Assembly (NCBI GenBank): GCA_964554015.1
Contig: CAZKMO010000003.1
Coordinates: 127 to 64,126 of the forward strand
Direction: 5' to 3'
Source: an uncultured bacterium
GTDB lineage: Bacteria > Zhuqueibacterota > QNDG01 > CAYUAG01
Length of the DNA: 64,000 bases
Made by a program: the position numbers and the translations under genes. Under the pieces are notes generated by a model. It saw nothing but the letters and a program-made list of their open reading frames with translations. It was not told the DNA's origin and made no database searches. Each line of letters begins with the position of its first letter. Position 1 is the first letter of the stretch. This document shows positions 15,093-27,404 of the stretch, one piece after another.

Positions 15093-15659
15093 CTATAGTA
15101 ACATCAATTCTATTAGCTTATCTTTTATCTGATCCGGATTTAATACATAATCAACACATCCGGTTTCAATTGCTTCTTTGGGCATACCGAAAATAATACT
15201 TGAATATTTATCCTGAGCTATGGTTGTTCCATAGATATGGTTAATATGAATAATTCCTTCTCTTCCATCTCGTCCCATTCCTGTTAGAATAATTCCTATA
15301 ATTTTCATATTAATTTTACTAACAACTGATTTCATAGTGACATCAATGGAAGGACAAACAAAATTAACCTTTTCACCTTTATATAATTTTATATTGGTAT
15401 TATTAATTAATTCAAGATGGTATTCACTGGGTGCTATATATACTTTTCCGTTGGTAAGCTCTACCCCATCCTCAGGAATAATCACTTCCATCTTAGTCAA
15501 TCCATCTAACTCTTTGGTAAAAGATTTATTTACAAATTCAGGCATATGCTGAATAAGGACTATTGCTCCATTTAGTACTGGTAATTCGGAGAATATTTCT
15601 CTTAATATACGAGGACCTCCTGCTGAAGATCCAATTATTGCAATCTTTGATGCTGCCAT
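15093..15659 (-). CDS. cheB: CheB methylesterase catalytic domain. It is in the same reading frame as the upstream receiver ORF and separated from it only by one TAA.
   Basis: IAIIGSSAGGPRIL is the typical CheB methylesterase N-terminus. No RBS of its own. Confidence 0.8.
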   Translation of the reverse strand: MAASKIAIIGSSAGGPRILREIFSELPVLNGAIVLIQHMPEFVNKSFTKELDGLTKMEVIIPEDGVELTNGKVYIAPSEYHLELINNTNIKLYKGEKVNFVCPSIDVTMKSVVSKINMKIIGIILTGMGRDGREGIIHINHIYGTTIAQDKYSSIIFGMPKEAIETGCVDYVLNPDQIKDKLIELMLL

Positions 15660-15668
15660 AGTGTAATA

Positions 15669-16043
15669 TTATTCCAAATACGATAAATATTTCTTAATGA
15701 GTTTTATTAAATCCTCGGAATCAAAAGGTTTGCGGATATAATCCAGTACATACTCTTTTAAATTATCCATTTTTTCGCCAGGCTGATCCTTCCCGGTTAA
15801 CATAAGTATAATCACATTCTTTATATAGCCACGTTTAACAATTTCGTTTATAGTATCCCAGCCGTCCATTTCGGGCATTATTATATCCATTAATATTATT
15901 CCCTTAAATCCTTTTTCTAGCTCTTTCAGACATGCCTTACCACTTTCTGCAGTTCTAACCGTTAAGTTATTCCGGATAATAATTTTTTTACAGGTTTTCA
16001 AAACCGCTAAATCATCATCAACAATCATGACTTCTTTTTCCAT
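15669..16043 (-). CDS. cheB: CheB N-terminal receiver domain, ended by a TAA at 15669-15671
   Basis: VMIVDDD...ILMDIIMPEMDG...LMLTGK...RKPF receiver motifs. Confidence 0.8.
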   Translation of the reverse strand: MEKEVMIVDDDLAVLKTCKKIIIRNNLTVRTAESGKACLKELEKGFKGIILMDIIMPEMDGWDTINEIVKRGYIKNVIILMLTGKDQPGEKMDNLKEYVLDYIRKPFDSEDLIKLIKKYLSYLE

Positions 16044-16071: not shown

Positions 16072-16578
16072 TTATATAGTCAGCTTTTTCTTTGCTTTTT
16101 TAGGTTTTCTTCCAAATAATGGATAAATTTTAATATGTCTGTCTTTTCCCTCTTTTCCATAACTTTGAGTTTTTATACCATTTCTATTCTTTAAATAATC
16201 GTGGACAACAAATCTTTCATAAGCACCCATGTGTGGCAAGTTTATTATATTACCATTCATTATCACTTCTTGAGCTTTCTGTTCAGCTAGTCTTTTTAAA
16301 TTTCCTACCGGATATACTTTTAAGGTATAATCCTTTTCTCTTTTATAGGTTCTGACTTTATATTCTGAATCGAGTGAAAATTTTTTCTTTATTTGTTTAA
16401 TCTGATAAGAATTTATATTATTAATTACATAAGGCTGTATTGAATCTATTAATTCATTTTTAATTTTATCCATGAGTGTATCAAAATCTTTAATTGATTT
16501 ATTAGTATTATCATTTGATTTCAGGTTAGGTTTTATACTGCTTTGCATTACCAACTCCTTATTATTCAGCATAATCAT
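16072..16578 (-). CDS. R3H-domain (Jag-like C-terminus) nucleic-acid-binding protein with a lysine-rich tail
   Basis: GAYERFVVHDYLKN...IKTQSYGKEGKDRHIKIY resembles the Jag/R3H domain (YERRIIH...TES.GEG..R). Confidence 0.45.
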   Translation of the reverse strand: MIMLNNKELVMQSSIKPNLKSNDNTNKSIKDFDTLMDKIKNELIDSIQPYVINNINSYQIKQIKKKFSLDSEYKVRTYKREKDYTLKVYPVGNLKRLAEQKAQEVIMNGNIINLPHMGAYERFVVHDYLKNRNGIKTQSYGKEGKDRHIKIYPLFGRKPKKAKKKLTI

Positions 16579-18364: not shown

Positions 18365-19420
18365 TTAAATGGAAGCATCCAAATCAAGCATTTTAGTCCC
18401 TTTGATGTATTCTTTGGAAACCGGTTTGGATATTCGAGCTAGTTTCTGGGTTATACTTTTAATTCTTAAGGCATTATCAATAATAATATTCAAGCGTTTT
18501 CGGATATCCTCATCAGTAATTCTCTCATCCTGAAGAAGAAACTGGGCATGTCCAAGTATCGGGACTAAAGGATTGTTTATGGCATGATTTACCGTAATTG
18601 CAGTTTCAAGAATGGTTGCTAATCTTTCTGAACGTTGTATAGATGAACTATCTACATCTTCCTTTTGGTGCATGGTAAGCGCTAAACAGCCGATTACATT
18701 CCCATTAATATCTTTCATTGGTGATAAAGAAAGACTAACTGGAATTTTATTTTTTGTTTTATCTATTAAAAATGTCTTATAATTGGTTAATTTTCCGTCT
18801 TTGTTGACTGTATTAAATATTTTTAACAGTTCTGAAGATCCATCATTTAATAACTCACTTATATTTAAACCTATTAATTCTTTGAATTTATATTTTAATA
18901 ATCGTATACTTGCTTTATTACAATAAGTAATATATCCCTTATTATCAGCAGTAAATATTGACTCTACTGAACTTTCAAGTACATTTTCCAGAAAATATTT
19001 ACCATTATTCATGGTTTTTTGAAATTTTTTATTGTTCTTGGAGACAACATTTGAAATTATAATTTTGTTAATAAAATTAATTAAATCATTGGTGTGGAAA
19101 GGTTTATTAAAATGTGAGTAGAAACCTTGTTTATTTAAGGTTGACTCGTTTGTTGTGCCATTGGAGGTTAAAAGAATAAAAGGAATATTTTTATGATTAT
19201 TTTGAGAATGTATCTTATTAATAAAATCTTCCGCACTCATGTCGGACAATCTTTCATCTACAAAAATAATATCAAATATATTATTTGAAGATTTTTTTAA
19301 ACCTGAGGATCCACTATCTGCAGTTATACAATGAAAAGATGAATTTGATAAAGTTTTCTGAACATCAGTGCATAGTGAATTATCACTATCAATATATAAT
19401 ACTTTTTTTAATGATTTCAT
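18365..19420 (-). CDS. Signalling protein with an atypical receiver, a PAS domain and a DHp (HisKA) domain, ending without any ATPase domain
   Basis: H-box ITVNHAINNPLVPILGHAQFL sits at the C-terminus with no N/G1/G2 boxes after it. The 4-nt ATGA overlap with the upstream regulator suggests translational coupling. Confidence 0.65.
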   Translation of the reverse strand: MKSLKKVLYIDSDNSLCTDVQKTLSNSSFHCITADSGSSGLKKSSNNIFDIIFVDERLSDMSAEDFINKIHSQNNHKNIPFILLTSNGTTNESTLNKQGFYSHFNKPFHTNDLINFINKIIISNVVSKNNKKFQKTMNNGKYFLENVLESSVESIFTADNKGYITYCNKASIRLLKYKFKELIGLNISELLNDGSSELLKIFNTVNKDGKLTNYKTFLIDKTKNKIPVSLSLSPMKDINGNVIGCLALTMHQKEDVDSSSIQRSERLATILETAITVNHAINNPLVPILGHAQFLLQDERITDEDIRKRLNIIIDNALRIKSITQKLARISKPVSKEYIKGTKMLDLDASI

Positions 19421-19794
19421 ACTCTTTTTTCTAATCTTTCCTCAACCAACTGTTTTAAAGTGAAAAGATCCCAGGGTTTGGATAAATACAAAGTACCATC
19501 TTCTTTATTCTCACTAATATTTCCAAATTTTAGATCAAGATAACCAGAAGTTAAAACTCTGATTGTTTCCGGATTTTTATTGCGAATATCGGTTAATAAA
19601 TCAGAACCTGAGTCATCCGGAAGTTTCAAATCAGTCAGTATAAAATCTACTTTATGTTTTTTCATAATATTTCTCGCCTCTTCTGCTTTCGTTGCTGTAT
19701 ACAATTCATACTCCTCATCTTTGAAAAGATCAACTAGAATGTCGAGTATTTCTTTTTCATCATCGACAAATAACAGGGATTTTACTTTTTTCAT
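19417..19794 (-). CDS. Single-domain CheY-like response regulator
   Basis: LLFVDDEKE, ILTDLKLPDDSG, LTSG and SKPW motifs; RBS GGAGGG upstream. Confidence 0.85.
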   Translation of the reverse strand: MKKVKSLLFVDDEKEILDILVDLFKDEEYELYTATKAEEARNIMKKHKVDFILTDLKLPDDSGSDLLTDIRNKNPETIRVLTSGYLDLKFGNISENKEDGTLYLSKPWDLFTLKQLVEERLEKRV

Positions 19795-19847
19795 TATACC
19801 CTCCGGTTTATAGTAAATATTACCTACTCAAATTCATTTCAAAAAAA

Positions 19848-19862
19848 GCAACATCTATGCCA
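19848..19862 (-). promoter_or_regulatory. Candidate sigma-54 promoter for the regulator / PAS-DHp operon
   Basis: Minus-strand TGGCATAGATGTTGCT (GG-N10-GC), about 50 nt upstream of the ATG at 19794 and directly downstream of a sigma-54 activator gene. Confidence 0.55.
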
Positions 19863-19994
19863 TAAATGTACTAACCGGATAAATATAATGATATCAGGTA
19901 TTTAGATACATTCTAATTACAAAAATTATACTTTAAATATTTTAATAAAAGGCAAGCTTTTCCTGCAGGATACGGATAGTTTTTCCGTTTTGAA

Positions 19995-21365
19995 TTATAT
20001 ATCTATTCCCTCTTTACGATATTCATTTAATTTATTTCGAAGTGTCCTAACACTTATTCCCAAGCTTTCTGCAGTTTCTGTCCTATTACCGTCAAACTGT
20101 TTTAACTTCTGTAGAATCATAACTTGTTCAATTGCTCGTAAAGTCATATCTTTGGAAAAACTATCTGTTTCTTCACGAACATATTGATCCTGAAGAGAAA
20201 AGTGTTTGAGTTCTAAGGTTTTACTCTGAGGACCGGATAATACGACTGCTCTTTCAACACAATTTTCAATTTCTCTCACATTACCCGGCCATTTTCTGTT
20301 GATTAAAATCTGTAATGCTTTATCAGAAATTTTCTTTTCTGCATAATTATTTTCTTTACAGTATAATTTTATAAAATGGTTGATTAATAAAGGAATATCT
20401 TCTCTTCTTTCCGCTATGACGGGTACTTTAATGGGAACAACATTCAACCTATAAAAAAGATCTTCTCTAAATCTATTTTCCTTAACTTCTTTTTTTAAAT
20501 CTTTATTCGTCGTAGCAATTATCCTCACATCAATAGGTATTACTTTACCACTCCCTACTCTTTCAATTTCCTTTTCTTGTAAAACTCGTAAAAGTTTTGC
20601 TTGAAGTCCGAAACTTATTTCAGAGATTTCATCCAAAAGAATAGAACCACCATCTGCCAGTTCAAATCGTCCTTTACTGGTTTTATATGCACCCGTAAAA
20701 GCTCCTTTTTCATGGCCGAATAGTTCGCTTTCCACCAAACTTTCTGGTAAGGAGGCACAATTCGTAGTAATGAAGGGTGCGTTTTTTCTATTACTGTTAT
20801 AATGAATTGATCTAGCAATAAGTTCTTTTCCAGTGCCACTTGGCCCTTGAATTAGTATAGTGGCTTTACTCTTGGCCACCATTTCAATAGTATTAAAAAT
20901 CTTGTCCATTGGTTTACTTTGGCCAATAATATTCTTAAAACTAAATTTTTTATTTAATTCCGACCGTAAATACTTATTCTCATCTTTTAAATCTTCAAAT
21001 TCAAAATATTTTTTTACCACAATTTTAATTTCGTCGATCTCGAATGGCTTGGCAATATAATCAAATGCACCATCTTTCATGGATTTTACTGCACTTTTTA
21101 TGGAACCATAAGCAGTAATCATAATAACACCAATTTCAGGATATTTTGATTTAATTTTTTCGAGAATTTCCATACCGCTAATATCCGGAAGCCGTATATC
21201 AGTTATAACAAGATCAAAGTCATCCGAACTTATCATTTTAAATGCTTGTTCACCATTCTCTGCAGTTTCCACGGTGTATTTTTCTTTCTCAAAGGTATCC
21301 TTTAACAATTCTCGAATCAATTCCTCATCATCAATAACTAATATGTTCTTATTTTTTTTCTTCAA
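19995..21365 (-). CDS. Sigma-54-dependent response regulator (NtrC/Fis family)
   Basis: Receiver ILVIDDEE...ITDIRLPDISG; GPSGTGKE; ESELFGHEKGAFTGA; C-terminal TAESLGISVRTLRNKL helix-turn-helix. Confidence 0.9.
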   Translation of the reverse strand: MKKKNKNILVIDDEELIRELLKDTFEKEKYTVETAENGEQAFKMISSDDFDLVITDIRLPDISGMEILEKIKSKYPEIGVIMITAYGSIKSAVKSMKDGAFDYIAKPFEIDEIKIVVKKYFEFEDLKDENKYLRSELNKKFSFKNIIGQSKPMDKIFNTIEMVAKSKATILIQGPSGTGKELIARSIHYNSNRKNAPFITTNCASLPESLVESELFGHEKGAFTGAYKTSKGRFELADGGSILLDEISEISFGLQAKLLRVLQEKEIERVGSGKVIPIDVRIIATTNKDLKKEVKENRFREDLFYRLNVVPIKVPVIAERREDIPLLINHFIKLYCKENNYAEKKISDKALQILINRKWPGNVREIENCVERAVVLSGPQSKTLELKHFSLQDQYVREETDSFSKDMTLRAIEQVMILQKLKQFDGNRTETAESLGISVRTLRNKLNEYRKEGIDI

Positions 21366-21376
21366 TGATTTTCCTA

Positions 21377-22036
21377 TTATATTTCGATTTTTAAAATATT
21401 AATTCCATCATTTTTTGATAACGCTGAATATTTTCCTTTTAACAAACCTACCATATTTTGGGTAATGGCAAAACATAATCTTGCATAAAGGTATCGGGAT
21501 TCCTTCATTAAATTTTTTATGTAGTCAGATATATCCGTATTATTTTTAATATCTTTTTCGAAATAAATTTTGATTGTAAGTTTTTTTCCCTTGGATAAAG
21601 TAACCAAGATTTTTTTTATTTTGCTATTAATTTCCTGTAAAAATTGTATTGCATTTCTAAAAAGTTCTTCCAAAATATCTTGATCAGATATTATTTCAAT
21701 ATACTTATCTTCAAGAGATTTATCAAAATCAAGCTTTTTTATTAAATCTTCATCATTACTGGATATATTTTTTAAAATTTCTCTAAACAAATATTCGATC
21801 TTCACTTTCTCTTCTTGAAGCTCTCTCATTCTAACCAGAGACATTAATTTTAAGGTTATTTCATTCACTCCAATAACACCATCATTAATTTTTTTTACAT
21901 ATCGCATTTTAGGATCATTAGAATTTAATTCTTTTTCCAGAAGAGTAGCATAGCCACCTATCCCTCCAAGTCCGTTTTTAATTTTATGGATTACATCAGC
22001 AATTAATTTATTAATAAATATATATTTAGTATACAT
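21377..22036 (-). CDS. Small DHp/HisKA-like protein with a degenerate or absent ATPase domain
   Basis: H-box-like ADVIHKIKNGLGGIGGYATLL; possible N-box LFRNAIQFL, but no DxGxG or GxGxG boxes. Wedged between a hybrid kinase and a sigma-54 activator (11-nt gap). Confidence 0.45.
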   Translation of the reverse strand: MYTKYIFINKLIADVIHKIKNGLGGIGGYATLLEKELNSNDPKMRYVKKINDGVIGVNEITLKLMSLVRMRELQEEKVKIEYLFREILKNISSNDEDLIKKLDFDKSLEDKYIEIISDQDILEELFRNAIQFLQEINSKIKKILVTLSKGKKLTIKIYFEKDIKNNTDISDYIKNLMKESRYLYARLCFAITQNMVGLLKGKYSALSKNDGINILKIEI

Positions 22037-22053
22037 AGTTAATTATATGCACT

Positions 22054-24516
22054 TTACTCATTAATATATGAACGAATTTTAGCAAGCAAGGGACGTATTT
22101 CAAAGGGTTTTTCAATAAATCCAGTCACTTTCCGTTTGTAAATATTTTCAATCTTTTCTTTTTCACCCTTTCTGGAAGTGGCAATAATTTTAACTTCAGG
22201 ATTAATTTTCTTAAACCAGGCTAACACCTTTTTTATGGGCATTCCTCTTAAGGCAATATCAAGAATTATCAAATCAATTCGACTTTTATATTTTTTATAT
22301 ATAGCAATTGCTTCTGAACTATTTTCAGCACTGATAACTTTATATCCATAACGGTTAAGCATCTTCCGAGCTGTCTCTCTGATAATTTTTTCACTATCGA
22401 CCAATAAAATAGTTTCTTTGCCCAGTGAAGGTTTAATATCCTTTTTTGTTTCTATATCAGTTGATTTTCTTTTTTGGGCTGATAGATGAATTTTAAATAC
22501 AGTACCTCTGTTCTTTTCACTAAAGACTGAAATAAAACCAGAATGCTTTCTTATTACATTCTGCACCATAGCCAATCCCATACCTTTACTATTTGAATCA
22601 ACATTTTTGGTAGAAAAATCAGGATCAAAAATTTTACTTTTTATTTCATTACTAATACCTTTTCCATTATCACTTATTTCAATCTGTACATATTTTCCTG
22701 GTTTGGCATTATACATTTTACAGACATTAGTATCATTTAATTCAATATTCCGAGTTTTAAAGAATATTTTACCACCATCAGGTATTGCATCCCTGGAATT
22801 TAAGGCAACCTGTAGTATGGCCTGTTGTATTTGACTTGCATCTGCCCTAATCAAATATACATCCGGATTTAATTCTGCATGTATAGATTTATTATTTTCT
22901 AGCGTTCTGGAAAGTATAGTGGCTACTTCTCTGATTAATTCGTTGACATCAAGAGAATCAACTATGTATGAACTTCCCTTTGAATACGCTGAAAGCCGTC
23001 CGGCCAATTCGGAAGCTTTTTCAGCGGAATTGGAAATTTGTATAATATCATCGTAAAATTGATTATCTTTAGATACTTCTTCTTTTAATAAAGAACTGAA
23101 TCCTAATATGGAAGCAAGCTGATTGTTGAAATCATGAACTATACCACCGGTTAAAATACCAAGAGATTCCATTTTTCTAGCTTGTATTAACTGATCTTTT
23201 AAACGTCGTTCATCACTTTGATTAATCCAATACCATAATTCTGATGTAACATTCTCATGTATTATTTTTGCAATTGAGCATTTTATTTCACATCGACTTC
23301 CATCACTGGTGATTATATTTATATCACAAATTTTATTTTTCTTTTCATTATTACTATTTCTTAACTTATTTATTTCCTCTTGTGATTCTGGAGTAAGAAA
23401 ATCAAATATTTTTCTCCCTTTTAGATTTTCTTGAGTGATTTCCAATATTTCACAAATCCATTCATTAACAAATTCAATTTTATCATTTTTTATGCATAAT
23501 ATACCTAAAAGAGGTGAATTATAAATTGATTTTGTTATATCGTCTGATTGGGGAGTTTTATTAATATTTAATTGAATAATTTTTTGAACAGATTGGACAT
23601 TATTTTCCAAGAAGGTAATATCTCGTTCCTCCCACATTTCTTGTTTTTTACCCAAAACGACTATATACCCTTTAATATTATTTTCTTCAGGTATTGGGAC
23701 AATTAGTGATGATTCATACTCAGTTAAAGAAACAAGATAATTTTTCAATTCCTCAGAGGTAATTCCCAAAACAAAATCAGATACGTTTTTTATTAAACAC
23801 ATACCATTTTTATTCACTGAAGCTGATGAAACTTCCGGGCAGGCATCGATCACTCTATTCCAAATTTGTGGACTCCAAAAAATATATTCATCTTTTTTAT
23901 TTTCATAAAGTTTATTGTCATGGGAAGATTTTTTTAAGAAGATATTTCCCAATGATTGTTTATCAGTTACTATCCCTATTTCCCAGGAATCTAAAATATT
24001 TTGAATATCAATCATGATTTTTTTAAGATCAGAGATGCTTACTTCATGATTTACAATTTTTTGAGCAATTTTATTAGAAAAGTCTCTCTCTTGTTCTAAG
24101 CAGGCAAGTTCAGTTATATCCTGAATATATAATCGAATAAATTTAGGTTTCCCGGAATCATCCAAATGTGCCAAACCATTAATTCTTACTGAAAAACTTT
24201 CTCCTTTCCCTTGCATGGTTGCTCTAATACTACGAATATATCCTTTATTGAGGCATTGTTTAAGAGAGTCTTGAATTATTTCTAAATCTTTTTCTATGAA
24301 AAAATCGATAAATTTTTTACCTAAAATCTCAATATCGGAAAAATTCATTTTTTCCTGGGCGGTAACATTACAGGATTCAATCTGATAAGTATCATTAATA
24401 AGAAAATAAAGAATATCAACTTTAGAATAAAATTCTTTATACACCCTTTCCGGAAGTTGGGAAAAATTAAGATTTTTATCAGTTATTTTGGGTTTTAATT
24501 CATCCATTTTTAGCAA
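22054..24516 (-). CDS. Cytoplasmic hybrid sensor histidine kinase (PAS/GAF-like sensory region, HisKA, HATPase_c, C-terminal receiver)
   Basis: H-box GGIVHDFNNQLASILGFSSLL; SDNGKGI, GMGLAM; C-terminal receiver ILLVDSE...ILDIALRGM. Confidence 0.85.
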   Translation of the reverse strand: MLKMDELKPKITDKNLNFSQLPERVYKEFYSKVDILYFLINDTYQIESCNVTAQEKMNFSDIEILGKKFIDFFIEKDLEIIQDSLKQCLNKGYIRSIRATMQGKGESFSVRINGLAHLDDSGKPKFIRLYIQDITELACLEQERDFSNKIAQKIVNHEVSISDLKKIMIDIQNILDSWEIGIVTDKQSLGNIFLKKSSHDNKLYENKKDEYIFWSPQIWNRVIDACPEVSSASVNKNGMCLIKNVSDFVLGITSEELKNYLVSLTEYESSLIVPIPEENNIKGYIVVLGKKQEMWEERDITFLENNVQSVQKIIQLNINKTPQSDDITKSIYNSPLLGILCIKNDKIEFVNEWICEILEITQENLKGRKIFDFLTPESQEEINKLRNSNNEKKNKICDINIITSDGSRCEIKCSIAKIIHENVTSELWYWINQSDERRLKDQLIQARKMESLGILTGGIVHDFNNQLASILGFSSLLKEEVSKDNQFYDDIIQISNSAEKASELAGRLSAYSKGSSYIVDSLDVNELIREVATILSRTLENNKSIHAELNPDVYLIRADASQIQQAILQVALNSRDAIPDGGKIFFKTRNIELNDTNVCKMYNAKPGKYVQIEISDNGKGISNEIKSKIFDPDFSTKNVDSNSKGMGLAMVQNVIRKHSGFISVFSEKNRGTVFKIHLSAQKRKSTDIETKKDIKPSLGKETILLVDSEKIIRETARKMLNRYGYKVISAENSSEAIAIYKKYKSRIDLIILDIALRGMPIKKVLAWFKKINPEVKIIATSRKGEKEKIENIYKRKVTGFIEKPFEIRPLLAKIRSYINE

Positions 24517-24536: not shown

Positions 24537-27005
24537 TTATTGAGATAAAATTTCATCTACTTTTTCAATAAACATCTCTGTCTGAAAAGGTTTTTTAATA
24601 AAATACTCTCCATTCAGCTTTAATAAATCTGGTCGGTCTTCCGGTCCATATCCACTGGTAAAAATTATATCAATCTCCGGTTTAATATTTCTTAAAATTT
24701 TACTTGTTTCCATTCCATCCATAACCGGCATAATAACATCAATAATAACTAATGCTATACTATCTATATTCTTTTTGAAAACTTCAACTGCTTCTTTTCC
24801 ATCTTTTGCTAATAAAACTTTATATCCACCTTTATTCAGCATTCGTTCACCGACTTCACGAATGACATCTTCATCATCAACAAATAAAATATATTTTGAA
24901 TTATCATTTATAACTTTCTTTTTAATATTCGTCTGATTTTCTTTTATACGTGGAAAAAATATTATTACATTGGTTCCCTTTCCAATCTCACTTTCAACCT
25001 TAATATATCCGTTGTGATTTTTGACAATTCCGTACACCATGGACATACCCAAGCCCGTTCCTTCACCTTGAGGTTTTGTGGTGAAAAAAGGTTCAAATAT
25101 TCTTAATTTTGTTTTTTTATCCATACCAAAACCAGTGTCACTAATGGTAATTTTTACATAATCTCCTTGTACTAAATTTGATATATATTCCTTATGAGAT
25201 TGATGCATTGTAATATTTTTAGTAATAATAGTTAATTTTCCACCTTCAGGCATTACATCTCTGGCATTTAAACAAATATTATGTAAAGTTTGGTGAATCT
25301 GACGCGAATCACCATAAATTGACCAAATATTTTTTTCAAGATTTGTTTCAATTATTACTGATTTATCCAAAGAATGGGAAAGAATAGCTACTACATCGTT
25401 TATTAAATTATTAATATTAATCTTAGTTACTTGATATTTTCCGCCTCTGGCAAAAGCAAGTATCCGGTTACTTAACTCTGCACCTCGTTTTGCAGTTTCA
25501 GCAATAGCTTGTATATCATTATAAAAGGGATGATCATCTGAGATTTCACTTAATAATAATGATGAAAATCCTAATATACCTCCTAGAAGATTATTAAAGT
25601 CATGGGCGATTCCACCAGCTAAGGTACCAAGTGATTTTAATTTTTGATTTTCAAGTAATTGTAATTCAAGATTTTTTCGTTCTGATATATCTATAATATA
25701 TCCAAATACTGCATTTTTTTGATTTAGAATTATATTGGATATGTATAATTCACACCAGCACATTTTACCATCTTTTCTAATTAAACGAATTTCATCTCTA
25801 AAGTTGGTTTTTTCACCTTTTTCTAAAAATTCATGATGACTAACAATTTTACTCCTGTCCTCAGCATCCACTAAATCATAAAATTCAATATCGTTCAGTT
25901 CATTCTCTGAATACCCGCTTATGGTTCTAAACATAGCATTGGTAAATTTTATTAATCCATTTTGTACTATGTAGATACCTAATATACTGGACTCAATTAA
26001 TATTCGATATTTTTCCCGGGATTCTCTTAAGATTGTTTCTAGCTCTTTTTTTCTGGTAATATCATTGATAAATGTCTGAATTACATTTTTTCCTTGGAAT
26101 TGAACTAAAGTACTTTTTAATTCTGCATAAAATTTTGTATTATCATTTTTTTTCAATATAGTTTCCAAGGATTCAACATTGTTTTTATTAATTACTTGTG
26201 AAAAATATTTTTTCTGTTTTTTGTACTCACTTTCTCCAGTTAAAAATTGAAATTTAGTATTTAGTAGTTTCTTTTTCTTTATTCCGAACAGTTTACAGGC
26301 TGCTTTATTAATTTCAACTATATCTCCATCTAGGGTATGGACTATAAGTCCATTATTGATACCATCAAATAAAGCATGATATTGTGCTTCTTTTTCTAAT
26401 AATTTTTTTGTGCCTAATTCGATCCTCTCCTCTACTTCTGAAGTCCATTTTTTTAGTTCCTCGTTTTTTTTCTTTAATTCATCGTACAATCGTGCATTTT
26501 GTAATGCGAAAGACAGAACCGAAGAAATAAAGGATATAAATTCACTTATTTTGGATTTATCTCTCCAACCAGAATAATTAATCAACAATAAGACATCAAT
26601 ATAGTCTTTTTTAATATTTATGGGACTAAATATTAGGGAATGACACTGATTATTTTTAAATTGTTCACTGATAAGTTTATCAACTGCAAAATCATCATAA
26701 AAAAGTATATCTTTTTTTACAAATCCTTTTTTTAATAAACTTAACTGAAGTCTGGAATTAATTATTGGTTCTTCATTTAAGGGTGCCGTAGAAATTATTT
26801 TTTGTTTCTTTCGTTTATTCCAATTTAATAATAAAATCTGTTCAGATAAGCTTCGTTTCTGCAGTTCGACTAATATTTTCTTAATTCTCTGCCAAGGATC
26901 CAAAGAGATTCGAAAAATATCTTTTCCACTAACCCAATTAATTAAAGATTGATTGATATCGGATGGTGAAATCGTATTATCTTTCTTTTTTATAAATAAA
27001 CCCAA
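24537..27005 (-). CDS. Cytoplasmic hybrid sensor histidine kinase (GAF/PAS, HisKA, HATPase_c, receiver). Apparent TTG start.
   Basis: H-box GGIAHDFNNLLGGILGFSSLL; SDTGFGM, GTGLGMSM; C-terminal receiver ILFVDDED...IIDVIMPVMDG. Confidence 0.85.
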   Translation of the reverse strand: MGLFIKKKDNTISPSDINQSLINWVSGKDIFRISLDPWQRIKKILVELQKRSLSEQILLLNWNKRKKQKIISTAPLNEEPIINSRLQLSLLKKGFVKKDILFYDDFAVDKLISEQFKNNQCHSLIFSPINIKKDYIDVLLLINYSGWRDKSKISEFISFISSVLSFALQNARLYDELKKKNEELKKWTSEVEERIELGTKKLLEKEAQYHALFDGINNGLIVHTLDGDIVEINKAACKLFGIKKKKLLNTKFQFLTGESEYKKQKKYFSQVINKNNVESLETILKKNDNTKFYAELKSTLVQFQGKNVIQTFINDITRKKELETILRESREKYRILIESSILGIYIVQNGLIKFTNAMFRTISGYSENELNDIEFYDLVDAEDRSKIVSHHEFLEKGEKTNFRDEIRLIRKDGKMCWCELYISNIILNQKNAVFGYIIDISERKNLELQLLENQKLKSLGTLAGGIAHDFNNLLGGILGFSSLLLSEISDDHPFYNDIQAIAETAKRGAELSNRILAFARGGKYQVTKININNLINDVVAILSHSLDKSVIIETNLEKNIWSIYGDSRQIHQTLHNICLNARDVMPEGGKLTIITKNITMHQSHKEYISNLVQGDYVKITISDTGFGMDKKTKLRIFEPFFTTKPQGEGTGLGMSMVYGIVKNHNGYIKVESEIGKGTNVIIFFPRIKENQTNIKKKVINDNSKYILFVDDEDVIREVGERMLNKGGYKVLLAKDGKEAVEVFKKNIDSIALVIIDVIMPVMDGMETSKILRNIKPEIDIIFTSGYGPEDRPDLLKLNGEYFIKKPFQTEMFIEKVDEILSQ

Positions 27006-27051: not shown

Positions 27052-27067
27052 TGCAAAGTTCATACCA
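27052..27067 (-). promoter_or_regulatory. Candidate sigma-54 promoter for the hybrid-kinase operon
   Basis: Minus-strand TGGTATGAACTTTGCA (GG-N10-GC, TTTGCA), about 45 nt upstream of the start at 27005, inside a 400-bp AT-rich intergenic region. Confidence 0.45.
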
Positions 27068-27404
27068 ATTTTACCAAAATTCGTTAGTATATATCTTTTT
27101 TTATCCATAAATAAAATCAATCACTTATTTAAAAGATAAAAAAAGATTCAATACCTTATAAACTAAAAAAATTTAATTTAATATTAAGTCAATATAATAT
27201 TTACTAAATGTTTATTTTTATTGATATCGAAAACCAAAAAAATATGAAAATTTTTTCAAAAATATACCTGCATGGCTAAATTATATTATTATTAAAAATA
27301 AAAATTTACTGTTTTTAATAAGCCTGGATTGAAAATCCTACTATAACATCAATAGTAAATTGAAACTAACCATTTCAGAATGATATTGTATAGTACAATT
27401 CTCT

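Follow-up and report, generated by a model that had tools for sequence, protein, structure and literature searches.

A conserved REC-PAS-DHp protein without an ATPase domain, encoded next to a FATGUY-type response regulator in an uncultured bacterium

The window analysed here, a 64-kb stretch of contig CAZKMO010000003.1 from an uncultured bacterium, encodes a 351-aa protein that combines a receiver (REC) domain, a PAS domain and a dimerization and histidine phosphotransfer (DHp) hairpin and ends shortly thereafter, without the CA (catalytic and ATP-binding) domain found in histidine kinases. Judging from its sequence, this protein, hereinafter the target, is a kinase-incompetent DHp protein that cannot bind ATP via a GHKL domain, and its truncation represents the native state, maintained by purifying selection. 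Tentatively, and with slightly less than even confidence, we propose that the target is a signal-gated protein which dephosphorylates, or exchanges phosphate with, the CheY-like regulator encoded immediately upstream, with a phosphatase or phosphoryl sink as the preferred reading. The target and its parts are as follows.

18365..19420, minus: REC-PAS-DHp(+tail) protein, 351 aa, without catalytic ATPase domain (open reading frame [ORF], Pfam, homologues and AlphaFold2 [AF2] model)
19070..19402, minus: atypical receiver domain, residues 7-117 (Pfam and alignment to RR468)
18677..18994, minus: PAS sensor domain, residues 143-248 (Pfam PAS_9/PAS and Foldseek)
18437..18649, minus: DHp (HisKA) helical hairpin, residues 258-328 (Pfam HisKA 277-332 and AF2 helices)
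18368..18436, minus: conserved C-terminal tail, residues 329-351 (ISKPVSKEYIKGTKMLDLDASI), followed by the stop codon at 18365-18367 (family alignment)

Comparison with Pfam recognized Response_reg (residues 7-117, E 1.5e-10), PAS_9/PAS (residues 143-248, E 9e-14) and HisKA (residues 277-332; 28.5 bits versus the gathering score of 26.9, E 1.6e-6) in the target and yielded no match to HATPase_c. The best NCBIfam model, AtoS, is covered only in its PAS-DHp part (model positions 258-461 of 616). The H-box TVNHAINNPL (residues 276-285, with the His279 codon at 18584-18586) is thus located in a DHp domain that lacks an ATPase domain, as the original prediction maintained; the early stop is equally real, although the quoted distance of about 60 aa from the H-box was too short, given that the C-terminus lies 72 residues past His279. 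With the ATP-binding domain entirely lost, the target should be unable to phosphorylate itself. His279, Asn282, Asn283 and Pro284 are present in all 116 aligned family members. The residue following the histidine (H+1; Ala280 in the target) is Ala in 102 of these sequences (88%) and Glu in the other 14, whereas H+4 (Asn283) is Asn throughout. As demonstrated for CrdS, two homologues and HK853, the acidic residue at H+1 is needed only for kinase activity and Thr or Asn at H+4 only for phosphatase activity (Willett & Kirby, PMC3510030), so that the H-A-x-x-N configuration of the target equals the kinase-minus, phosphatase-plus state engineered in CrdS E372A and its HK853 equivalents. These mutants, as well as the isolated DHp domain of EnvZ, are laboratory constructs, whereas the target belongs to a natural, conserved family. 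The isolated EnvZ domain reportedly retains phosphatase activity.

Comparison with HK1, a complete hybrid kinase encoded farther upstream, suggests that the tail corresponds by position to the DHp-CA linker and the first strand of the lost CA domain. This alignment points to descent from a full kinase and, as such, would fit an artefact or a decaying gene, that is, a kinase cut short by a recent nonsense mutation or through a mistake in sequencing or assembly. However, the comparative data refute this explanation, to which we assign a negligible probability. No continuation encoding an ATPase domain was detected in the three minus-strand frames downstream of the target (18364 to 16700), all of which are closed, being rich in stop codons until the next gene, which encodes an OMP beta-barrel/TPR protein; the original prediction, which saw no frameshifted HATPase_c there, was correct on this point. 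A homologue search covering 5.8 billion proteins retrieved ~115 homologous protein clusters with 39-95% identity to the target, all of 351-372 aa and REC-PAS-HisKA architecture and none with HATPase_c. The scores fall abruptly, from 270 to 126 to 86 bits, and ordinary PAS kinases start at the last of these values. The homologues come from metagenome-assembled genomes (MAGs) labelled uncultured 'bacterium' or candidate division KSB1; an exact lookup of the 351-aa target sequence found no record, and its gene context was compared through the loci of the homologues. The family alignment shows hardly any variation in the segment TAVAVNHAINNPLVPILGNAQFLLQ and the tail PVTKEYLKGTRMLDIDAST, and over the last 96 codons, the dN/dS ratio is 0.05 between the window and locus L001 and 0.014 between L001 and L006, with synonymous sites near saturation. 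The same length, architecture and stop position in ~115 clusters from many independent assemblies, together with the dN/dS values of 0.01-0.05, make an assembly error or a pseudogene very unlikely as the cause of the stop.

The target is one branch of a sizeable family of CA-less HisKA proteins that carry the usual kinase-type sensors; at 50% identity, this family spans no fewer than about 150 clusters. A pattern scan of species genomes for the DHp module 'ETAV(T/A)VNH(E/A)(I/V)NNPL ... EY..GT.M(L/I)D', which ends 72-90 residues past the histidine, located such proteins in Zixibacteria, Ignavibacteria, Calditrichota, Latescibacterota, GN15, Armatimonadota and Deferribacteres. With the 96-residue DHp-tail region as the query, an exhaustive HMMER search among 1.84 billion representatives produced 146 clusters at E <= 1e-10, and 142 of the 150 best matches end within 30 residues of the match, which further argues against a truncation specific to the target. 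The following domains were identified by Pfam among the closest representatives.

HisKA: 146 of 148 closest DHp-tail representatives
HATPase_c: 4 of 148
REC: 40 of 148
PAS: about 39 of 148
GAF: about 17 of 148
HAMP: 9 of 148

Single cases carry Cache or Reg_prop/Y_Y_Y domains, and the architectures include REC-REC-DHp-tail, a transmembrane (TM) segment in TM-HAMP-DHp-tail, and a 1135-aa Reg_prop-PAS-DHp-tail protein. Outside the KSB1-like clade, the residue at H+1 is Glu.

Several relatives of the module depart from this scheme. A sister family of ~256-260 aa in Zixibacteria, Ignavibacteria and Calditrichota (L054 8506-9276, L032 8506-9276 and L057 8512-9285) combines a GAF-like N-terminus with a CA-less DHp (VNHEVNNPLTAILGN), the same tail and an acidic C-terminus; within 5 kb of these loci, no two-component genes were found, and synteny with a purF-like gene and a gene for an FAD-dependent oxidoreductase is conserved. 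In proteins of ~560 aa (L047 5470-7149; also L073, L082 and L084), the DHp-tail module (VNHQINNPL) is internal rather than terminal, located between a GAF-like region and a C-terminal HD-GYP-like domain (HHHEDVNGEGYPD), and the gene directly follows that of a 505-aa REC-HisKA-HATPase protein. In P0164 (478 aa), PAS and the DHp-tail module are followed in tandem by a second, complete HisKA-HATPase_c core, which could illustrate how a CA-less module coexists with a true kinase. Finally, the most distant full-length relative, P0115 (L085/L086 8001-9074; 28% identity, HE at the H-box), is encoded in a flagellar gene cluster, with FlhA, FlhF, FlhG and FliA upstream and FlgF to FlgK downstream, directly after RsbW-like (HATPase_c_2), STAS and GAF genes.

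The single-chain AF2 model of the target (mean pLDDT 75) consists of a receiver fold, a low-confidence linker (130-144), a PAS fold, two helices (258-297 and 304-328) and, in the tail, a predicted short beta-hairpin at 335-345. Foldseek comparison of the whole model returned only generic PAS-kinase and receiver matches; the PAS-DHp part matched PAS/LOV histidine kinases and chimeras (4gcz, 4i5s, VicK) and the receiver CheY-like proteins. The nearest solved sequences are RR468 for the receiver and ThkA and LvrB for PAS-DHp. Among solved structures, no chain aligns with the tail beyond 'RISKP', and only the helical part is covered (LvrB, ThkA). P333, Y338, D346 and S350 of the tail are invariant in the family alignment, and in the wider DHp-tail family, the conservation of Y338 is 90% or more. 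The acidic pocket of the receiver is D11-S12-D13 rather than DD, with position 12 being Asp in only 5 relatives; the acceptor D55, T85 and K106 are present. Among 109 relatives, the acceptor position holds Asp (92), Glu (8), Asn (6) or Ser (3). Given that the acceptor is lost in 17 of the 109 (16%), an obligatory internal Asp-to-His step cannot be general, and a role of the receiver as an input domain is more likely. In the PAS domain, Cys167 and Asn168 of the motif ITYCN(R/K)A are invariant or nearly so across the family, and no cofactor motif was recognized in it.

The start codon of the target overlaps by 4 nt (ATGA) the stop codon of a gene for a 125-aa CheY-like regulator, which is preceded by a sigma-54 promoter; both of these features had been noted in the original prediction, and both were corroborated.

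19417..19794, minus: single-domain CheY-like response regulator, 125 aa, probable cognate partner of the target (Pfam and family alignment)
19847..19862, minus: sigma-54 (-24/-12) promoter TGGCATAGATGTTGCT, ~50 nt upstream of the CheY-like start codon
19950-19964 and 19972-19988, minus: two conserved palindromes, AGGAAAAGCTTGCCT and ACGGAAAAACTATCCGT, 90-125 nt upstream of the promoter

The 4-nt overlap, or direct adjacency of the two genes, is conserved among related loci. In the CheY-like protein, the canonical residues DD, D, T and K are all in place, and the catalytic residues are invariant in the family alignment. The motif LTSGY, found in 20 of 21 aligned sequences (L017 has LSSGS), is followed by a degenerate alpha4 which, by its sequence, does not look helical, and by a KPWD motif. 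The protein thus appears to carry the FATGUY signature, namely, F/x-x-(S/T)-G-Y at the end of beta4 combined with a degenerate alpha4, which defines phospho-shuttling single-domain regulators, such as SdrG, MrrA, CpdR and Sma0114 (PMC9981736).

The promoter TGGCATAGATGTTGCT (TGGCAT-N5-TTGCT) is the sole exact match to TGGCAY-N5-TTGCW in the window, and 23 of 25 related loci have an equivalent, alignable site. The palindromes consist of GGCAAA..TTGCC-type repeats that are conserved in an alignment of 21 loci, and both were also flagged as hairpins by a terminator scan; they are candidate enhancer (upstream activating sequence) sites for the adjacent NtrC-like activator, to which this protein would bind. 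When the window was scanned for additional copies of the palindrome, a strict pattern gave none and a loose one scattered hits without evident meaning, but both regular expressions missed the two known sites, so that this search is uninformative with respect to other regulon members in the window. With its promoter spacing, adjacent activator and upstream repeats, the two-gene locus has the predicted features of a sigma-54-dependent operon.

Two loci show other arrangements. At L011 (8796-8983), the CheY-like gene is absent and the sigma-54 promoter directly precedes the REC-PAS-DHp gene, 69 nt upstream of the stop-to-stop frame that holds it. In a Deferribacteres MAG (L027 1424-5315), a REC-PAS-DHp-tail gene whose product is 31% identical to the target is preceded by a single-receiver gene of the FATGUY-like type (LMTGY, KPWD) and by the gene of a complete REC-HisKA-HATPase kinase, indicating that the association with a FATGUY-type receiver reaches beyond the KSB1-like clade.

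Upstream of this operon lie the genes of a putative phosphorelay.

19995..21365, minus: NtrC/AtoC-like sigma-54 activator, REC-AAA+-HTH_8, 456 aa (Pfam; NCBIfam AtoC, 495 bits)
21377..22036, minus: p219, a 219-aa protein with DHp and degenerate CA, ChpT-like architecture (weak HisKA match, alignment and AF2)
22054-24516, minus: HK2, CckA-like hybrid histidine kinase (Pfam)
24537-27005, minus: HK1, CckA-like hybrid histidine kinase (Pfam)

Loci of 42-69% identity and another 20 species genomes keep the gene order: one or more hybrid kinases, a protein of ~220 aa, the NtrC-like activator, a gap, the CheY-like gene and the target; the genes downstream of the target vary between loci. HK1 and HK2 are each PAS-HisKA(HDFNN)-HATPase_c-REC proteins, with FTSGY in the receiver of HK1, and for both the best NCBIfam family is CckA, with 360 and 275 bits relative to an equivalog cutoff of 1000 bits. 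In p219, the histidine of VIHKIKNGLGGIGG (DVxHKxKNxLGGIxGF) is invariant and H+1 is Lys, whereas the family alignment shows no conservation of the N, G1 and G2 boxes, the G2 position reading EARLSLA. Structure comparison aligns the AF2 model of p219 with complete DHp-CA cores (ZraS, WalK, HK853, DivL, RetS and CckA), although Pfam HPTransfase was not matched by this protein. The protein evolves fast, and a word-indexed search gave only 8 close relatives; the wider family was gathered from neighbouring ORFs in the homologue loci. The invariant histidine, the degenerate boxes and the superposition of the model on DHp-CA cores identify p219 as a predicted pseudo-kinase of ChpT-like architecture, sited where a shuttle from the hybrid kinases to the NtrC-like activator would be expected.

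A second sigma-54-like site, TGGTATGAACTTTGCA (27052-27068, minus), precedes the first hybrid kinase gene by ~50-65 nt. Only L001 and L006, the two closest relatives, conserve this site, which was therefore set aside as a part of the system; autoregulation of the kinase operon is possible in these cases but would not be general.

The composition of the relay bears on the partner of the target. The original prediction considered the two hybrid kinases for this role, which now appears less likely because every locus has a dedicated p219 between its kinases and its NtrC-like regulator, with a helix-1 surface that resembles that of the hybrid kinases, whereas the DHp of the target is AtoS/NtrB-like, unlike theirs. 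Inspection by eye also sets the target apart: helix 1 of the CheY-like protein reads EEILDILVDLF, unlike the IRE-type helix 1 of the NtrC-like and hybrid-kinase receivers, and the DHp surface of the target has VPILGN versus the GGIxGF common to p219 and the hybrid kinases. This contrast, a soft argument, points to the CheY-like protein as the partner of the target.

The same data speak to the possibility that the target is one half of a split histidine kinase, with His279 being phosphorylated in trans by the CA domain of, for example, the hybrid kinases. Split HisKA/HATPase arrangements have been proposed, and EnvZ works with its two domains split (PMC3591291); moreover, two complete kinases are encoded 2.6 kb upstream of the target, and the retained linker-tail could dock a CA domain. 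Nevertheless, this arrangement is very improbable, considering that the acid required at H+1 for autokinase chemistry is replaced by Ala and that the AtoS-like DHp of the target is unlike the HDFNN DHp of the hybrid kinases. Nor did we find a stand-alone CA gene in the conserved clusters, where every HATPase_c is part of a complete hybrid kinase and the sole additional CA fold, that of p219, has degenerate ATP-binding boxes. Alternatively, the target might be a non-catalytic regulator which titrates a response regulator or heterodimerizes with the DHp of a kinase, in the manner of PhyT-PhyR or RetS-GacS, respectively. DHp-DHp interference (PMC8498467) and PhyT-PhyR sequestration (PMC5898713) are both documented, and the receiver of the target looks partly degenerate. 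However, the invariance of the catalytic His279, Asn283 and Pro284 in 116 of 116 sequences goes beyond the needs of a binding surface, and the target DHp differs from those of the neighbouring kinases, which renders this role improbable.

We thus return to the reading proposed at the outset, in which the target acts on the CheY-like protein. The DHp face (His279, Asn282, Asn283 and Pro284), together with the linker-tail, would dock the receiver of the co-translated FATGUY-type regulator, and the target would act on its phospho-aspartate, either hydrolysing it directly or passing the phosphoryl group back to His279, with the N-terminal atypical receiver and PAS domain setting the conformation of the DHp. 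The CheY-like/target operon would be the sigma-54 output of the adjacent relay, in which phosphate presumably passes from the CckA-like hybrid kinases via the 219-aa ChpT-like pseudo-kinase to the NtrC-like activator; if the latter, as is likely, drives the operon, the product would provide feedback or a second-tier branch. The binding of the receiver by the DHp, the dephosphorylation chemistry and the control of the promoter by the NtrC-like protein are all deduced from sequence features. A phosphatase or sink is favoured by the H-A-x-x-N state, by the fusion to diverse sensors, a pattern that would be expected of a regulated activity and not of a passive shuttle, and by the fact that p219 is already a candidate shuttle. 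The CheY-like protein is favoured as the substrate by the translational coupling, by its very high conservation, which parallels that of the DHp, and by its distinct helix 1.

Several observations weigh against this proposal. No biochemistry is known for any family member, and co-variation between the DHp and the receiver gives no signal, the DHp being nearly invariant. The invariant histidine is not strictly needed for a HisKA phosphatase and suits a phospho-acceptor at least as well; furthermore, the CA-less family outside the KSB1-like clade keeps Glu at H+1, which would help a nucleophilic histidine. FATGUY-type single-domain regulators are typically phospho-shuttles (PMC9981736), and PhyT, long called a phosphatase, proved to be a transferase without detectable phosphatase activity (PMC5898713). 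As for the substrate, the CheY-like gene is absent at L011, and no receiver gene adjoins that of P0115 in the flagellar cluster. The NtrC-like protein is a possible alternative substrate, given the AtoS-like DHp of the target and the fact that some relatives (L074, L034) adjoin NtrC-type regulators.

The serious alternative, to which we give a distinctly lower, yet appreciable, probability, is a forward histidine phosphotransferase following the logic of PhyT, ChpT and Spo0B. Phosphate would then flow from the hybrid kinases or p219 to the FATGUY-type CheY-like protein, to His279 and on to a terminal receiver, which could be the REC domain of the target itself, the NtrC-like activator or an unlinked regulator. 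The histidine is invariant despite the absence of a kinase domain, the CheY-like partner carries LTSGY and the degenerate alpha4, and there are precedents for transferases fed by a FATGUY regulator, namely, Pak-SdrG-PhyT-PhyR (PMC5898713) and CckA-ChpT-CtrA/CpdR (PMC9981736). The Glu at H+1 in the wider DHp-tail family points in the same direction. ChpT and Spo0B keep Asp at this position. By contrast, H+1 is Ala in 88% of the clade of the target, the acceptor Asp of its own REC domain is missing in 16%, so that an internal REC-to-His step is not general, and no terminal acceptor can be named. Besides, the relay already has a candidate transferase in p219, and the known dimeric transferases are not usually fused to sensors so diverse. 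The description of the target in the original prediction as a kinase-dead phosphatase or phosphotransfer module hence stands as far as kinase incompetence and the lack of the CA domain are concerned, but the features fit the two activities alike, Ala at H+1 with the invariant Asn at H+4 fitting a phosphatase and the invariant histidine with the FATGUY-type partner a transferase.

Comparison with the characterized systems is instructive in this respect. ChpT of Caulobacter and Spo0B of Bacillus are kinase-derived proteins with a DHp four-helix bundle which are unable to use ATP and move phosphate between receivers, and ChpT serves a CckA-type hybrid kinase and the FATGUY regulator CpdR (PMC9981736), the same cast as in the locus of the target. 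With such dimeric histidine phosphotransferases, the target shares the DHp-type hairpin with the H-box histidine, as indicated by Pfam, alignment and the AF2 model. However, ChpT and Spo0B retain a C-terminal pseudo-CA alpha/beta domain and have no sensor domains, whereas the target has only a tail of 23 residues, and Pfam searches at E <= 0.01 detected no match to SPOB_a (PF14689), HPTransfase or HPt (PF01627) in the target; at this locus, the ChpT-like architecture belongs to p219. PhyT (formerly PhyP) of Sphingomonas melonis resembles the target in having a kinase-incompetent DHp with a conserved histidine and an N-terminal sensor region and in working with a FATGUY single-domain regulator, SdrG, the counterpart of the CheY-like neighbour of the target; whether it is a phosphatase or a transferase was long debated (PMC5898713). 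Yet, PhyT is membrane-anchored, with a DHp of the HisKA_2/HWE type and a degenerate CA domain, whereas the target is cytoplasmic, with REC and PAS domains, an AtoS/NtrB-like HisKA DHp and nothing but the tail in place of the CA domain, and no sequence relationship between the two was detected. Lacking the membership features of the Spo0B, ChpT and PhyT families, the target might at most work like these proteins; the Spo0B-like logic invoked in the original prediction thus holds as an analogy, not as a family assignment.

Complete HisKA kinases share with the target the DHp and the H-box histidine and differ in having HATPase_c; of their motif, an acid at H+1 and Thr or Asn at H+4, the target keeps only the phosphatase half. 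The closest solved DHp sequences are those of LvrB from Leptospira (8vc9; REC-DHp-CA) and ThkA from Thermotoga (3a0r; PAS-DHp-CA), both of which possess HE in the H-box and a functional CA domain. In database terms, the target falls among the incomplete histidine kinases (P2CS 'iHKs'; HisKA without HATPase in SMART), which account for 1556 of 42417 HisKA proteins (3.66%) in SMART (PMC3591291). This class is a matter of bookkeeping, with no assigned mechanism, whereas the subfamily of the target is coherent, its tail and circuit being conserved and its sensors diverse. Literature searches for a REC-PAS-HisKA family without an ATPase domain found no description. Given that CA-less HisKA proteins are already known as a class, what is noteworthy here are the size of the family, the diversity of its sensors and the completeness of the circuit.

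Two-component signalling is usually drawn as a kinase and a regulator, with kinase-dead DHp proteins, such as Spo0B, ChpT and PhyT, treated as rare specializations. All three keep a pseudo-ATPase domain, whereas the family of the target has removed the ATPase domain entirely while keeping the H-box and the sensors. Annotation pipelines label such proteins 'PAS domain S-box protein' or 'hybrid sensor kinase'; should they be regulated phosphatases or gates, the proteins labelled as kinases would do the opposite job, and network reconstructions that count them as kinases would be wrong. It is conceivable, though on balance doubtful, that DHp-plus-tail constitutes a distinct and widespread two-component output domain, an ATP-free 'sensor phosphatase/transferase' in which the tail replaces the CA domain in receiver docking. 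If so, this output domain would share the input repertoire of true kinases (REC, PAS, GAF, HAMP, Cache and Reg_prop/Y_Y_Y). Phosphate drains or gates under signal control would then operate beside the kinases of many bacteria, especially those of the FCB group, and the KSB1-type operon would provide the first example of a circuit specified in full. The locus would hardly astonish a specialist, yet it offers a good experimental entry point: combining hybrid kinases with a pseudo-kinase shuttle, a sigma-54 activator, a regulator of the FATGUY type and a DHp-only sensor, it is a compact, fully specified test system suited to asking what an H-box histidine does without an attached kinase.

Elsewhere on the minus strand of the window, a gene for an R3H-domain protein (16072-16578) is followed by those for a stand-alone receiver (15669-16043) and a receiver-less CheB methylesterase (15093-15659). 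The last two are, in effect, a CheB split in two genes, an arrangement that is conserved in L001, L005 and L006, which are the closest relatives.

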